Shown: piece by piece, positions 698 to 57,468 of the stretch | Numbering within the stretch: the stretch's first letter is position 1 | How the letters are laid out: every line of letters starts with the position of its first letter | Assembly (NCBI GenBank): GCA_964016885.1 | Contig: OZ024761.1 | Coordinates: forward strand, 9,858,001-9,922,000 | Source of the DNA: Eledone cirrhosa | Lineage: Eukaryota | Length of the DNA stretch: 64,000 nucleotides | Reading direction: 5' to 3' | Notes under the pieces: generated by a model | The model's database searches: none | What the model saw: only the letters and a program-made list of their open reading frames with translations | Told to the model about the DNA's origin: nothing | Program-made: the position numbers and the translations under genes

Positions 698-900
698 ATA
701 TGAAACTATTCAAGACCCCGACGGCTGAGCTCCGGCCATTTCGACGGCTAGATCCGAACAGTTCGGATCAAGCTGTCGAAACGGCTGGAGCTCAGCCATC
801 GGGGTCCTGAATCTTTTCATATTACCCACTCTACTGCCCCAAGTATCGAGTACTCTGGTGGGTTATGGTCCACCTGGTATCTTACCACACCCTATCTGAT
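698..900 (+). mobile_element. Family B short foldback copy (divergent subfamily)
   Basis: Inverted arms of about 60 bp (698-760 / 762-822) carrying GAAACGGCTG..CAGCCATC, then the tail TACCCACTCTACT...CTTACCACA, in (TA)n. Confidence 0.8.
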
Positions 901-1018
901 ATATATACATATATATATATAGAGAGAGAGAGAGACAAAGATGTTAAAATCCGCGGCGCAAGCGATTTCGGCTTGTGTGTTTAGCAAGCCTTTTCAGGGG
1001 TGTAGTAATATATATATA

Positions 1019-1150
1019 TAGGAAAAAGTATGACCCCGACGGCAGAGCTCAAGCCGTTTCGACGGCTATTTCTGGACTCTACTACCCTAAGTATTGAGTA
1101 CTCTGGTGCGTTATGGTCCATCTGGTTCCTTACCACATTTCCTTTGTTAT
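1019..1150 (+). mobile_element. Family B short copy (internally deleted)
   Basis: Inverted arm TAGGAAAAAGTATGACCCCGAC... joined directly to the tail. Confidence 0.8.
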
Positions 1151-1234
1151 ATATATAATCAAAATTGGCGACAGGCACAAGAAGTCTATGGTCGTTGTCT
1201 ATCGACATTGACTGACACAGTTGTTGTTTTTTTT

Positions 1235-1647
1235 TATTAATAATTGTTTCTTCTTTGGGCACAAGGCCAGCAATTACGCAGTGCATTACTGGTACTTTAT
1301 TTTATCGACCCTGTAAGGATGAAAGGCAAAGTTAACCTCGGCGGGATTTGAACTCAGTCCGTAAAGGGACGTAACTGTGCTGAAAAGCATGGCGTCCGAC
1401 CCTCTACCGATACTGCCAATTTGGTATTTATTAAATACCGTTGTTTTTTATTAATAATTGTTTCTACGTTAGGCACAAGGCCAGCAATTACCAATTACCC
1501 AGCGTATTACTGGTACTTTATTTTATCGACCCCGTAAGTATGAAAGGCAAAGTTAACCTCGTCGGGATTTGAACTCAGAATGGCAAGGGCCGTAACTCTA
1601 TGCGCCAAAGCATGGCATCCGACACTCTACCAATACTGCCAATCCAT
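1235..1647 (-). mobile_element. Two tandem copies of the same SINE
   Basis: Match to the 55389-55574 copy including the B box. Confidence 0.85.
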
Positions 1648-2404
1648 TTATTAATAATATTTGCCCACATATGTCATTCAGTTGGATCGAATCCAGGACT
1701 TAGTAATTGTGAAACGAGGTTCTTAACCAATCAAATCACTTTATAATTACATTTCTTTTTTTGTTAAAATGTTCTTTTCTAATAAATGAATAAACAACTG
1801 CAACAACAGCTAATTAGACGATTGTTTACCAAATACCGTCTTCACACCTTAAACATCACATCTATTGAGTTTACTATCACTACTACTACTACTACGACTA
1901 CTACTATCACTATCACTACTACCACTACCACTACTACTACTATTATGCCGTGTAATAAGAGAATGATTATATCCTGTGAGACACACTTATCTTCCCATAA
2001 GACCCTCCTCTTCCGCTTCTTCTTATTCTTCAAGAAAACTTCCTTTCTAAAATCTTTACACGGATTTGAAACAGTTAATGATATATATGTGTGTATATAT
2101 ATATATATATTATATATGTGTGTGTGTATGTGTATATGTATGTATATATATATATATATATATACATATATATATTTATGTATATATGTAATGGTTATAT
2201 ATATATATACACATACATATATATATACACAATATATATATATATACACACTATATATATATATCTATATATCTATATAAACACTATATATATATATATA
2301 TATACACTATATATATATATCTATATATGTATTTTAATTAGTAGAACGTATAATTTTATCAATTTTTTTTTTTTCATTTTTTAATATAAAATAATTGTCA
2401 TTGT

Positions 2405-2622
2405 TGTTGTTTGTGATGTCCGAGTCGTTGTTGTTTGTGATGGTGTTGTTGTTGCTGTTTGTGATGGTGTTGTTGTTGCTGTTTGTGATGGTGTTGTTGT
2501 TGCTGTTTGTGATGGTGTTGTTGTTGCTGTTTGTGATGGTGTTGTTGTTGCTGTTTGTGATGGTGTTGTTGTTGCTGTTTGTGATGGTGTTGTTGTTGCT
2601 GTTTGTGATGGTGTTGTTGTTA
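2405..2622. repeat. 24-bp minisatellite (GTTTGTGATGGTGTTGTTGTTGCT), about 8-9 copies
   Basis: Direct tandem repeats. Confidence 0.9.
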
Positions 2623-2727
2623 TGTCTTTAGATGTCCGAGTGTTTATCCTCTCCACTTAATTAGATTCTATAATCCGCCCACTTGACCTTTAATCCGGAT
2701 TTTCAAAAATAATTGACCGCATCTGCC

Positions 2728-54020: not shown

Positions 54021-54519
54021 ATATATTAATAATAAATTATCGTTGTAATGTAATTAGATTATGTAATTGTTATTATAAATTATCTTATAAATATTAGTGT
54101 AAGATGTATAAAAATATTTTCAGACTTTTAATATAAACAACTACAAAAAACAATCAATATTAAATCAATATATTATACATAATAGAAAACATAAAATATA
54201 CAATACAAAAACAAAATATTTACATACATTTGCAATTATCAGTGTATATACATTTTCTTTATATTCCCTGAGCAAATTAATAAGATTTGTTTTTATTGTA
54301 CATAATTTGATGACTTGTTGGAGTGTATTAAAAGATAGCAACAATTTGTGATTAAATTGTTATCTTAAGCAACTCACTTTTTAATAGTTGTTGGCTGAGC
54401 GAAATTGTAAAAGCCTATGAGCAAATATAAAAAAAAATACACAAACAACATTTCCTTGTGTTATTACAACATTAGATAAAATAATTGAGCAATGTCGTTA
54501 TATTTTGCTCTTATTGCAC

Positions 54520-54695
54520 ATTAATAGTGTTTCTATTTTTCGGCACAAATCCATTACGGCAGTCCATTACTGGTACTTTATTTTATCGAATTAGTAAGTA
54601 TGAAAGTCGAAGTTAACCTCGGCAGGATTTGAACTTAGAATGCAAAGGACCATAACAATACTGCAAAGCATGGTGTCTGACGCTCTACCAATACT
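54520..54695 (-). mobile_element. Diverged SINE copy
   Basis: CATTACTGGTACTTTATTTTATCGA...GGATTTGAACT. Confidence 0.7.
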
Positions 54696-55388
54696 TGTGT
54701 TGAGCTGGTCATTAATTTATGGTGGTCGTGCGTGAAGTAGAGCAATCGCTAGTTGAAATATTATGAACAAAACATTTTTATTTGCCGAAGAACATATTTT
54801 CAATACTGTTTGTGAATGTGACGAAGGAAATACATTCTGATATGGAACAGTGTACAAAGTGTGTCTGTGAATAACATAATGTTACCTCATGTTGTTGTCA
54901 AGACATAATGGATTTCGTTTATCCAGTTAGAAGATGAAACCTAGCCATCTCGGATTAGTTATATTTCATGCCATGTGTAAACGTGTTTGAGGATAGCAAA
55001 ATATGCGCGTTAATTATAATAATTAGTTAATAATATTACAAAATATACCTAATTAAACTCTTTGCTTGAAATTTTATCATTCTTCGTTTATATATATATA
55101 TATATATATATATATATATATAGAGAGAGAGAGAGAGAGAGAGAGAGAGAGAGAGAGAGATTTATCTAGTCCTTCGCTCAAGATTAATCTATAAGTTTAG
55201 ATGTTTGCCTTCGTTTAAGTAAATATTACAGTAAGATTTTTAATATAAACAACTGCAAAAAACAATTAATATTAAAACGAAAAAATTATCAATGATAAAA
55301 GAAGCGGATGCAACTTTTTTTTTTATAAAGTTATATTCCTGTTTCTTTAAAGAACATTTCATTTTTGTTCTATTGTAGGCGAAATAAT

Positions 55389-55574
55389 TGTTTCTACTTT
55401 AGGCACAAGGCCAGCAAATTACCCAGTACATTACTGGTACTTTATTTTATCGACCCCGTAAGGATGAAAGGCAAAGTTAACCTCGGCGGGATTTGAACTC
55501 AGACTGTAAAGGGACGTAACTATGCTAGAAAGCATGGCGTCCAACCCTCTACCGATACTGCCAATTCACCGCCC
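55389..55574 (-). mobile_element. Full-length tRNA-derived SINE (octopus-type)
   Basis: A box TGGCAGTATCGG and B box GAGTTCAAATCC on the minus strand; central GCCTTTCATCCTTACGGGGTCGATAAA domain; 15-bp TSD TGTAGGCGAAATAAT at 55374-55388 and 55575-55589. Confidence 0.88.
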
Positions 55575-56764
55575 TGTAGGCGAAATAATGCAATGGTTTA
55601 ATAGGGAAGATATAACTTACGAATTATGTCTCTAACCGTGTAACGCTTTTTAAGTAGATAACTACAATTGAAAATACTAAAGAAATGGAACCAACAATTC
55701 AATTTGAAAGTCGTCTAGTGACAGTGTATTACTGGTACTTTATTTTATCGACCCCGTAACGATGAAAGGCAAAAATGCAAATGCTTAAAATTTAAATTGC
55801 CTTAATTCTATCGTCTGCTGTTTCATTAAAGGGAGATTATCGTCTGTATTTAATTCTATCGTCTACTGTTCCACTAAACAGATATACCTTCACTATCGTC
55901 TCTATTTATACATTTTAACTTATAACTTATACACATTTGATTTGAAATATTTTATCTAGTCCCCCCTCTCAATATTATGATGATTTCTTTCGAATGAAAC
56001 AGTTCTAGTCCTGTAGAAGCCATTTATATATATAATTGAACTGAGTTAAAAATTCACAATATTTATAATTAAATAAGCTCATATATATATGTGTGTATTT
56101 ATCTGTTTATTGTATTATATATAATGTGTGTATATACAGGATGTCCCCCAAAAATATATACACACTTCAACAGCATTCTAATAACTATTGCCTGTACAGG
56201 TAATCAAAGTGTCAATCGAATGTTAGTTTCGTGTTTTAACAGTACAAATTTACAATACACACATAAAACCAGTGTATATACATACATGAGTGTGTATACA
56301 CATACATGAATGTGTATATACAATATATATGTATATATATATATAGACACATGTATTCACGGTGCAACGGTACATTAAAATATAGATGCGGGAGAGGGGG
56401 TGTATATATAGGGGCGCTGGGGATAAAGGAGTGTAAAGCGTGTGTAATTGATATATTGAAGGAGAGGAGCGTGCAGCGATAGAGTAACAAATATATAGAG
56501 AGGGGGAGAGATGGTATTGAAGGGGAGGAGTGCAAAGCGAAAGAGTAAGAGATATAAATAGAGACGGAACAGATAGAGAGAAACAGGCGTAAGTAACAGT
56601 GGAAGAGATATAGAGAGAGGTACTCTGATTGGTTGAAAATTAGCCAATGACATACGATCACCACCACGGCTATCCCCGAAAAATTTTTAAAGAAACTAGG
56701 CATATATGTTAGAACACGAAAAGTGAACATTCTGTGTTTCACACTTTTCGTGTTCTAACAGATA

Positions 56765-56980
56765 TAACGAAGGAGGTGTGGTAAGGAACCAGATGGACCA
56801 TAACGCACCAGAGTACCCAATACTTAGTGTTTAACCCCGACGGCAGAGCTCAAGCCGTTTCGACGGCTATTTTTGGACTCAGAAATAGCCGTCGAAACGG
56901 CTTCAGCTGTGCCGTCGGGGTTAAATTTTTTCCTATATATATATGTATATATATGTATCTTACCACACCCTCTTTGTTAT
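56765..56980 (-). mobile_element. Family B short foldback copy plus an adjacent tail fragment
   Basis: Tail, arms 56830-56872 / 56882-56923, and a tail-end fragment at 56956-56980. Confidence 0.75.
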
Positions 56981-57016
56981 ATATATATATATATATATAT
57001 ATATATATATATATAT

Positions 57017-57468
57017 ATACGATATTAAATAAATGGAAACTATATTTATAAAACCATATTTATTTCATTATATATATTTCAGGGATATCATATTAAAAAT
57101 ATGGTATGCCTTCTTCAGACAAAATACAATATAAACAGTCTTATAAATAGATAGAGTTGACATACCTTACAACTTCAACTTCCATTTAAAAAGTTGATTT
57201 GGTAGTGAAAAATGTTAGGGACAGTTATAAAAAGAAAGAAAGAAAAAAAGAAAAAAAAGCGAAGAAAAAGAAGAAATGCATGCAACTAAATAGAGAGAGA
57301 TAGATATAGAGAGATAGATAGAGAGAAGAAATTCATGTAAAGAAACAGAGAGAGATAGATAGAGAGAGAAAAAACCAAATAAATATGGTTTTATAAATAT
57401 AGTTTCCATTTATTTAATATCGTAAATATACTCCAAATACTTGTTGAGTGCTTTTATATCAGTTATAA
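57017..57468 (+). mobile_element. Family C second copy; hammerhead at 57061-57126 on the minus strand
   Basis: Minus strand reads TATTTTGT-CTGAAGA-AGG...CCT-GAAA-TATATA-TA-ATGAAATA; arms 57017-57065 / 57377-57424; tail to 57468. Confidence 0.8.

Follow-up and report, generated by a model that had tools for sequence, protein, structure and literature searches.

Hammerhead-bearing 3' ends of Penelope-like elements in TA microsatellites of the cephalopod Eledone cirrhosa

We analyzed a 64,000-nt stretch of the 3.0-Gb genome assembly of Eledone cirrhosa (GCA_964016885.1, contig OZ024761.1, positions 9,858,001 to 9,922,000; hereafter, the window), in which six repeat families, A to F, carry hammerhead ribozymes and lie in or next to TA microsatellites, (TA)n. 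Families B to F are almost certainly Penelope-like elements (PLEs). More specifically, B, C, E and F are very probably 5'-truncated 3' ends of PLEs with Hydra-clade motifs, D is the same kind of 3' end with Nematis-like motifs, and A is a non-coding tandem repeat likely copied in trans. We consider the phenomenon to be real, well supported, and mostly known biology at unusual density. An earlier note on this DNA, made from the sequence alone, read the families as footprints of a diverse retroelement system that targets microsatellites and is processed by ribozymes. Such a system is not unknown: the accessible text of PMC8557442 describes PLEs of the Hydra clade, among them an octopus family, that carry hammerheads and target (TA)n. 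Processing by ribozymes is a weaker part of that reading, as the ribozymes of most copies are halved or damaged, and the ribozyme of the only PLE assayed in vitro was dispensable for insertion (PMC11167929).

The assignment of B to F is carried by open reading frames (ORFs). Searches of the Eledone genome with each family scored the 40 best candidates and retrieved 10 to 30 loci per family; a further 20 larger stretches (10-kb loci) were picked for signs of ORFs. [quoted passage not shown] The ORF-bearing loci are L161, L162, L173 and L175 for B, L170-L172 for C, L166, L167 and L177 for D, L163, L165 and L166 for E, and L168 and L169 for F. For example, L161 consists of an inverted untailed copy, a pseudo long terminal repeat (pseudo-LTR), the ORF, the 3' untranslated region (UTR) and a tailed pseudo-LTR, and the long B copy of the window matches the 3' UTR of L175 at 92% identity over 893 nt. 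Pseudo-LTRs are located on both sides of the ORF in L161 (B) and L163 (E), the tail directly precedes the ORF in L170 (C), and the D locus L095 reads past the tail into an open frame; among the fetched F loci, pseudo-LTRs on both ORF sides were not seen. The tail is the leader between the pseudo-LTR and the ORF, with its end 90 (B), 44 (C) and 78 nt (E) before the ATG.

Read as far as each fragment extends, the proteins of B, C, E and F show motifs diagnostic of the Hydra clade. Those of B, C and E contain RW and DKT (in place of DKG), and the F fragment begins downstream of both. Fragments of B, E and F have the CxCx5C linker, as well as CxxC and CxH around the conserved E and N, and no CCHH; for C, the linker motif is in the ORF fragment and the C-terminal motifs were found by eye in L004. 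The D protein, with CX4CxxC, CCHH and a short linker, is unrelated to the other four and appears Nematis-like by motifs read by eye, although Neptune is also a possible home; a homolog search for D returned no clade names. In a fold search with a model of the E protein (predicted local distance difference test score 80), telomerase accounted for the top two matches. Pfam matches were weak: GIY-YIG and RVT_1 for D and F, and GIY-YIG in 4 of 28 aligned relatives. One trait listed for the Hydra clade, a length generally under 3 kb, is not shared by B and E, which have periods of 3529 and ~3600, respectively; this trait is descriptive, not diagnostic.

Self-comparison of the window after microsatellite masking recovered all six families where the earlier note had placed them, including the nine insertions of B. 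The architecture described there for A to D, i.e., an inverted arm, a direct arm and a tail, was found again, and genome-wide it is also true of E and F; the tails, however, span 42-100 nt rather than 45-80 bp (A 74, B 80, C 91, D 42 or 57, E 88 and F ~100 nt). The claim that the families share no similarity stands for DNA, where within A to F only the three D copies are alike, but not for proteins, given that those of B, C, E and F are 33-54% identical and share the motifs of one clade. The insertions in the window are as follows.

6942-8299: A insertion; inverted 5'-truncated arm, ~2.5 tandem 467-bp non-coding units and tail, (TA)n on both sides
6942-7120, minus strand: A inverted arm, 5'-truncated and untailed, joined to the plus-strand tandem units
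7398-7445, plus strand: promoter-like module of A unit 1; 12-nt octamer-containing box at 7398-7409, TATA at 7442; repeated at 7865-7912
7492-7536, plus strand: A type I hammerhead; palindromic stem III, predicted cut after 7529; second copy at 7959-8003
8226-8299, plus strand: A tail, 74 nt, ending the tandem units
698-890: B short inverted pair, tailed; 3' half of the hammerhead only, older subfamily
1018-1153: B short inverted pair, tailed; no complete hammerhead
5295-5493: B short inverted pair, tailed; 3' half of the hammerhead only
12150-12360: B short inverted pair, tail on the minus strand
14350-14468, minus strand: B remnant, tail and very short arms
24538-24660: B short inverted pair, tail on the minus strand
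49877-50077: B short inverted pair, tailed
50741-52980: B long insertion; complete U3-A8 hammerheads, cores at 50931 (minus) and 52881 (plus)
51718-50746, minus strand: tailed arm of the long B insertion, ~970 nt of PLE 3' UTR and tail
52121-52980, plus strand: untailed inverted arm of the long B insertion, ~860 nt
56764-56936: B short inverted pair, tail on the minus strand
10005-10543: C inverted pair; tailed arm minus (core 10155, stem I mismatch), untailed arm plus (core 10440)
57022-57475: C inverted pair; untailed arm minus (core 57118), short tailed arm plus
47740-48045: D relative D2; core 48004 (plus), weak stem I, ends in (TA)n ten bases past the predicted cut
48349-48780: D inverted pair; untailed arm minus (core 48588, 2-bp proximal stem I), tailed arm plus, 57 nt
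50443-50735, minus strand: D relative D3; core 50663, untailed end in (TA)n
14493-14645, minus strand: E untailed arm, core 14584
30182-30373, minus strand: E tailed arm, core 30364, stem II closing pair mismatched
50271-50360, minus strand: E tail only, no hammerhead
50116-50227, minus strand: F untailed arm; canonical type I hammerhead with bulged stem I, core 50201

Each family has two fixed 3' ends (D has three), and in the inverted pairs both 3' ends face outward into TA. The arms vary in length from 40 to 890 nt, with variable inner junctions and fixed outer ends, and of 36 inverted pairs, 33 have a tail on one arm only (28 of 30 when the junction gap is at most 250 nt). Using the criterion that a fixed 3' end abuts (TA)4 or more, we found TA flanks at 24 of 25 fixed ends in the window and at 66 of 72 in a systematic genome sample of sixty 10-kb stretches at round coordinates (600 kb), compared to a background of 2.8%. 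Without C, for which the reference itself ended in TA, 38 of the 44 sampled ends qualify. A control repeat abuts TA at 0 of 67 3' ends and 8 of 83 5' ends. At the eight fixed ends whose read-through reference matched exactly, the element and the TA tract overlap by 1, 2, 2, 3, 3, 4, 5 and 6 nt (mean 3.25, compared to 1.02 for random joins; P ~2e-4). A small CTC...GAG hairpin follows all six B, C and E ends (background 0.6%), and was found neither at the F copy tested nor at any of the five A, A' and D sites (A' is a sister family of A described below). The 600-kb sample contains 65 insertion clusters (A 1, A' 4, B 26, C 17, D 15, E 2 and F 0), which by rough extrapolation corresponds to ~3e5 insertions genome-wide; extrapolated in the same rough way, the hammerhead descriptor matches of this sample (below) correspond to ~2e5 hammerheads. 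It should be noted that (TA)n makes up 20% of the window, three times the sampled average, and the insertion density is also about threefold that of the sample. As a separate observation, D2 copies have TA ten bases after the predicted cut in two cases (47740-48045; L110), unlike D and D3, and may be a separate family.

The hammerheads were searched for using strict and relaxed type I descriptors, with local dinucleotide shuffles as controls. The strict descriptor found 8 motifs in the window versus a mean of 0.15 in 100 shuffles, the relaxed descriptor found 10 versus 0.18 in 50 shuffles, and the 600-kb sample contained 50 descriptor matches versus a mean of 3.3. Three further cores, C at 10155 and D at 48004 and 48588, fail both descriptors on stem I; with these, the window has 13 cores, so that the earlier estimate of about a dozen holds. 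Type I order fits all 13 (the rearranged, type SGC, hammerhead was not searched for), and the only D motif matching a descriptor is that of D3. In an Rfam scan of the window, A was the only family among the top 150 of 774 matches (HH9, 38.6 bits; gathering score 52), microsatellite matches dominating the scan. The statement that each family has a hammerhead is correct for all six, but does not extend to every copy: most B copies lack half of the ribozyme, and the E copy at 50267 is a tail only. Complete B ribozymes occur only in the long insertion at 50741-52980 (n=2, core UUGAGAA), the 5' core is present in 2 of the 8 B arms matched in the window, and short B copies are cut inside stem II. 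Across 35 distinct contexts, the B core is UUGANAA, with U3-A8 in 28, position 7 variable and C3-G8 in none.

Stem covariation was examined in alignments gathered by similarity of flanking sequence. The C set comprised the window copy and 18 of 22 variants, which passed a 5' motif filter, with three out-of-register sequences and one near-duplicate dropped; 89% of cells are paired, and six pairs show two-sided change, in 26 cells versus 12 in shuffled controls. In the 13 rows of A and A', six pairs likewise show two-sided change (14 cells versus 3.4), so that compensatory changes are present in both sets. More than ten further hammerhead families were noticed among the 50 descriptor matches (L232-L291), including a second U3-A8 type (L258).

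Family A differs in kind. It is a 467-bp tandem unit in 11 loci, with up to four units (L005), ends fixed at positions 463 and 70 of the unit, 5' ends that vary, and inversions; the best 40 copies are at 99% identity. The longest ATG frame is 46 aa, and the tandem is non-coding with a type I hammerhead in every unit, as in non-LTR retrozymes. A search for RNA data sets containing A listed none; contigs from four runs not recorded as RNA were compared with A and carry no information on its expression. Copying of A by the PLE machinery is likely. The RT and GIY-YIG ORFs beside A in L004 and L009 were considered as A's own and rejected, because they belong to C, into which A inserted. In differences between A copies (L003-L010, L140, L217 and L285 versus window A; counts unpolarized and uncorrected for shared ancestry), a strand bias was observed, with 46 A>G and 13 T>C. 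The related family A' (~417-bp unit) occurs in L009, L025, L026, L041, L080, L112, L127, L252, L280 and L291, with a window fragment at 12614-12660; it has the same box as A and ends in TA, with 4 insertions per 600 kb, and the core of its hammerhead contains the extra U that many of the listed Hydra elements also show. Two other non-coding hammerhead families, H (L245, L286 and L250; period ~320 bp) and I (L232 at 8324, L244 and L296), have the box, a TCAG core and TATA in the same spacing as each other. Yet another tandem and inverted family that ends in TA (L161 1300-2950; L084, L115, L180 and L244) has a box variant near its end and no clear hammerhead.

The 12-nt box of A is also located at -76 to -78 in three distinct U6 upstream regions and in that of RNase MRP, and, with one change, in that of the best U6atac locus; the A 12-mer is identical to the box of the U6 locus L182. 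The signal recognition particle (SRP), U1 and U2 genes were rejected as its source, since the box is absent from their upstream regions (0 of 8 for U1/U2 and 0 of 10 for SRP). Five of six U6atac loci lack the box and resemble processed copies; two promoterless ones, L293 and L294, lie directly beside (TA)n and PLE ends and are possibly processed copies placed in the same targets. In A, A', H and I, the box is 88-100 nt upstream of the hammerhead, even though H and I have no BLAST similarity to A, and the chance of an exact octamer in such a slot is 5e-4. The TCAG core, found 56-58 nt before the start in 8 of 8 U1/U2 upstream regions and in 0 of 5 of RNA polymerase III (Pol III) genes, is at the matching place in A', H and I. 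An older A copy departs from A at 1 of ~146 positions in the tail and promoter, compared to 44 of ~289 elsewhere. The ~270 nt after the predicted start of A are free of T-runs, which is weak evidence for Pol III. Judged from these sequence features, the chance that A holds a working internal promoter is slightly better than even. Two features count against a plain U6 promoter: the distance from box to TATA is 44 nt in A (43-46 in A, A' and H) versus 47-51 in U6 and MRP, and the TCAG core of U1/U2 is present in A', H and I but missing from A.

Several results weigh against the assignments given above. Six B, C and E protein fragments had no Pfam match, a PDB sequence search with a PLE alignment found nothing, and the 64 kb of the window contain no PLE ORF. 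Every ORF-bearing copy that we saw is partial, frameshifted or interrupted, and the clade assignments come from motifs compared by eye, without a tree. For A, neither an own nor a partner ORF was found in the 11 loci, and the small hairpin of the B, C and E ends is missing; D ends are next to TA in just 4 of 9 sampled cases. As to the ribozymes, 7 of 35 B cores have a C3-A8 mismatch, the shuffled controls of the covariation counts do not correct for relatedness, and single hammerheads gave weak fold z-scores (-0.7 to -2.7), which is usual for minimal motifs of this kind.

That the hammerheads are chance matches in AT-rich, microsatellite-rich DNA is close to inconceivable: the window is indeed one-fifth (TA)n and the Rfam scores are below threshold, but the excess over shuffled sequence in both the window and the sample, the many dispersed copies and the compensatory changes all speak otherwise. 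Scarcely more credible is that the insertions are miniature inverted-repeat transposable elements (MITEs) or other remnants of DNA transposons, bounded by terminal inverted repeats and targeting TA. Inverted arms with flanking TA would fit such elements, but we found asymmetric arms of widely varying length, nearly always with one tail, in place of symmetric terminal inverted repeats, and the linked ORFs encode RT and GIY-YIG, not a DDE transposase; for B to F, these ORF links refute the MITE reading. The earlier note had named three outcomes that would refute its own reading, and none of them occurred: the arms are asymmetric and linked to RT and GIY-YIG ORFs, the hammerhead stems covary, and TA flanks are enriched. 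It is improbable, though less so, that all families spread as ribozyme-cut circular RNAs with obligatory self-cleavage, i.e., by the retrozyme route, as the earlier note implied. The stems covary, and in A every unit of a multimeric tandem carries one hammerhead, an arrangement like that of the circle-forming retrozymes of coral, mussel and axolotl in the accessible text of PMC7229834, so that this route is plausible for the tandem units of A. However, copies end not at the predicted cut but 19-70 nt (B, C, E and F) or ~230 nt (A and D) downstream of it, B to F are ends of coding elements, and, in the accessible part of PMC11167929 on the Anolis element PAc, hammerhead mutants did not affect insertion in vitro, the ribozyme being dispensable.

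For the insertion of PLE ends, we lean towards twin priming. A PLE enzyme would nick both strands of a (TA)n tract, and each DNA end, paired by 1-6 nt to one of two internal start points on the RNA, would prime cDNA synthesis; both cDNAs would stop early and join head to head, producing an inverted arm, a direct arm and a tail. The hammerhead would be just upstream of the two start points, so that short copies either keep it or cut through it, and A would be transcribed from its own small nuclear RNA (snRNA)-type promoter. According to the same part of PMC11167929, PAc has two internal RT start sites that bound the tail, and it cuts and extends both strands of AT-rich DNA; its start sites are not homologous to the cut DNA, which counts against this model, as does the proposal of self-priming on an antisense template for such inversions (PMC3846280). 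A rather unlikely alternative, to which that proposal lends support, is that these are PLE ends for which priming took place once and the inversion came from a subsequent fold-back or template switch, with the TA overlap left from earlier insertion cycles and not used for priming. In its favor, several B copies have palindromic inner junctions and the A arm end overlaps TA by only 1 nt, but fold-back alone fails to explain outer ends that are nearly always at two different fixed sites. Taking twin priming and the promoter together, we put forward a broader proposal only tentatively, and regard it as doubtful as a whole: the genome may harbor self-promoted, ribozyme-bearing parasites of PLEs (A and at least three other non-coding families), with a hybrid snRNA promoter (U6 box and U1/U2 core) inside the tandem unit that survives retrotransposition, and PLE enzymes may have inserted by twin priming, with both TA ends pairing with two fixed RNA sites, in ~300,000 events.

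Other features of the window were also noted. Three long interspersed element (LINE) copies with apurinic endonuclease and RT domains are located at 32583-35721 (plus), 37230-42617 (minus; two long open frames) and 43215-45677 (minus). A LINE ORF of the window was considered as the mobilizer and rejected: its sequence is unrelated to PLE proteins, so it is not an obvious candidate. An abundant short repeat, likely a short interspersed element (SINE), is found at 1226-1654, 17766-18123, 21921-22094, 23994-24129, 47090-47626, 54520-54695, 55383-55773 and 58625-58775; the SINE-like control repeat forms partial tandems and one inverted pair, and its 3' ends avoid TA. An intronless frame for a rhodopsin-family G protein-coupled receptor (384 aa; Pfam 7tm_1, E 3e-32) is at 20278-21432 (minus), and an 84-bp tandem array of ~10 units is at 2730-3571. 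A perfect 209-bp inverted repeat at 53019-53967 has its left end in TA, and its right arm continues; it has no hammerhead core and did not occur in the 600-kb sample.

These findings bear on two questions, namely by which route PLE insertions come to be inverted and tailed, and how retrozymes are mobilized in animals. The copies, which are young, nearly identical and number in the hundreds of thousands, represent a natural data set with clear rules (two fixed ends, a single tail in each pair and a short overlap with TA) for an in vitro assay, and family A links a non-coding retrozyme with PLE insertion marks and a candidate promoter. These results also suggest that a sizeable part of the repeats of this genome sits in microsatellites, invisible to Pfam.

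The class of elements is already known: an inverted truncated copy, a tail and a (TA)n bias have been described for PLEs (PMC8557442, accessible text; PMC3846280), and PLEs have been proposed as mobilizers of retrozymes (accessible parts of PMC7229834 and bioRxiv 10.64898/2026.07.22.740005). The individual families appear new as far as literature searches reach, although Repbase, Dfam, subscription journals or preprint supplements may contain them. The literature searched also gave no earlier account of the scale, the rule of one tail per pair, the overlap with TA or the promoter. Within the accessible text of PMC8557442, the Hydra clade, including Hydra-1_Obim, is alike in protein motifs, canonical 3' hammerheads, (TA)n insertion, 5' truncation, the inverted copy and the optional tail. 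The differences from that text are (i) hammerheads of B, C, E and F unlike that of Hydra-1_Obim; (ii) tails of 80-100 nt in these families versus 30-40 nt; (iii) units of ~3.5-3.6 kb (B and E) versus under 3 kb, and the U3-A8 core of B; and (iv) copy numbers near 1e5 versus four copies noted for Hydra-1_Obim. The Nematis examples listed there are from nematodes, whereas D is from the cephalopod Eledone.

The Poseidon element PAc of Anolis, as presented in the accessible part of PMC11167929, is similar in the two start sites bounding the tail and in the cutting and extension of both AT-rich strands; in PAc, however, the tail is inside the ORF, whereas in Eledone it is the 5' leader and the ends overlap TA by 1-6 nt. 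Metazoan non-LTR retrozymes, in the accessible parts of the two retrozyme sources cited above, resemble A as non-coding tandems with a type I hammerhead for which PLEs are the proposed mobilizers, but their units are 170-400 nt compared to 467 nt in A, and A shows the PLE insertion marks directly (inverted arm, tail and fixed TA ends). The comparison of A with snRNA genes was prompted by newt satellite 2, cited in the accessible text of PMC2220036, with an internal snRNA promoter read by RNA polymerase II; the box of A, by contrast, matches host Pol III genes, and the sister families also carry the U1/U2 core. The hammerheads of PMC4209133 have in common with the present set the U3-A8 core, an extra base between positions 9 and 10.1, a stem III that is short or palindromic, a stem I of 2 bp, pairs on opposite strands at distances of 100-700 bp and thousands of solo motifs, with counts of thousands per genome, compared to an estimate of ~2e5 in Eledone.

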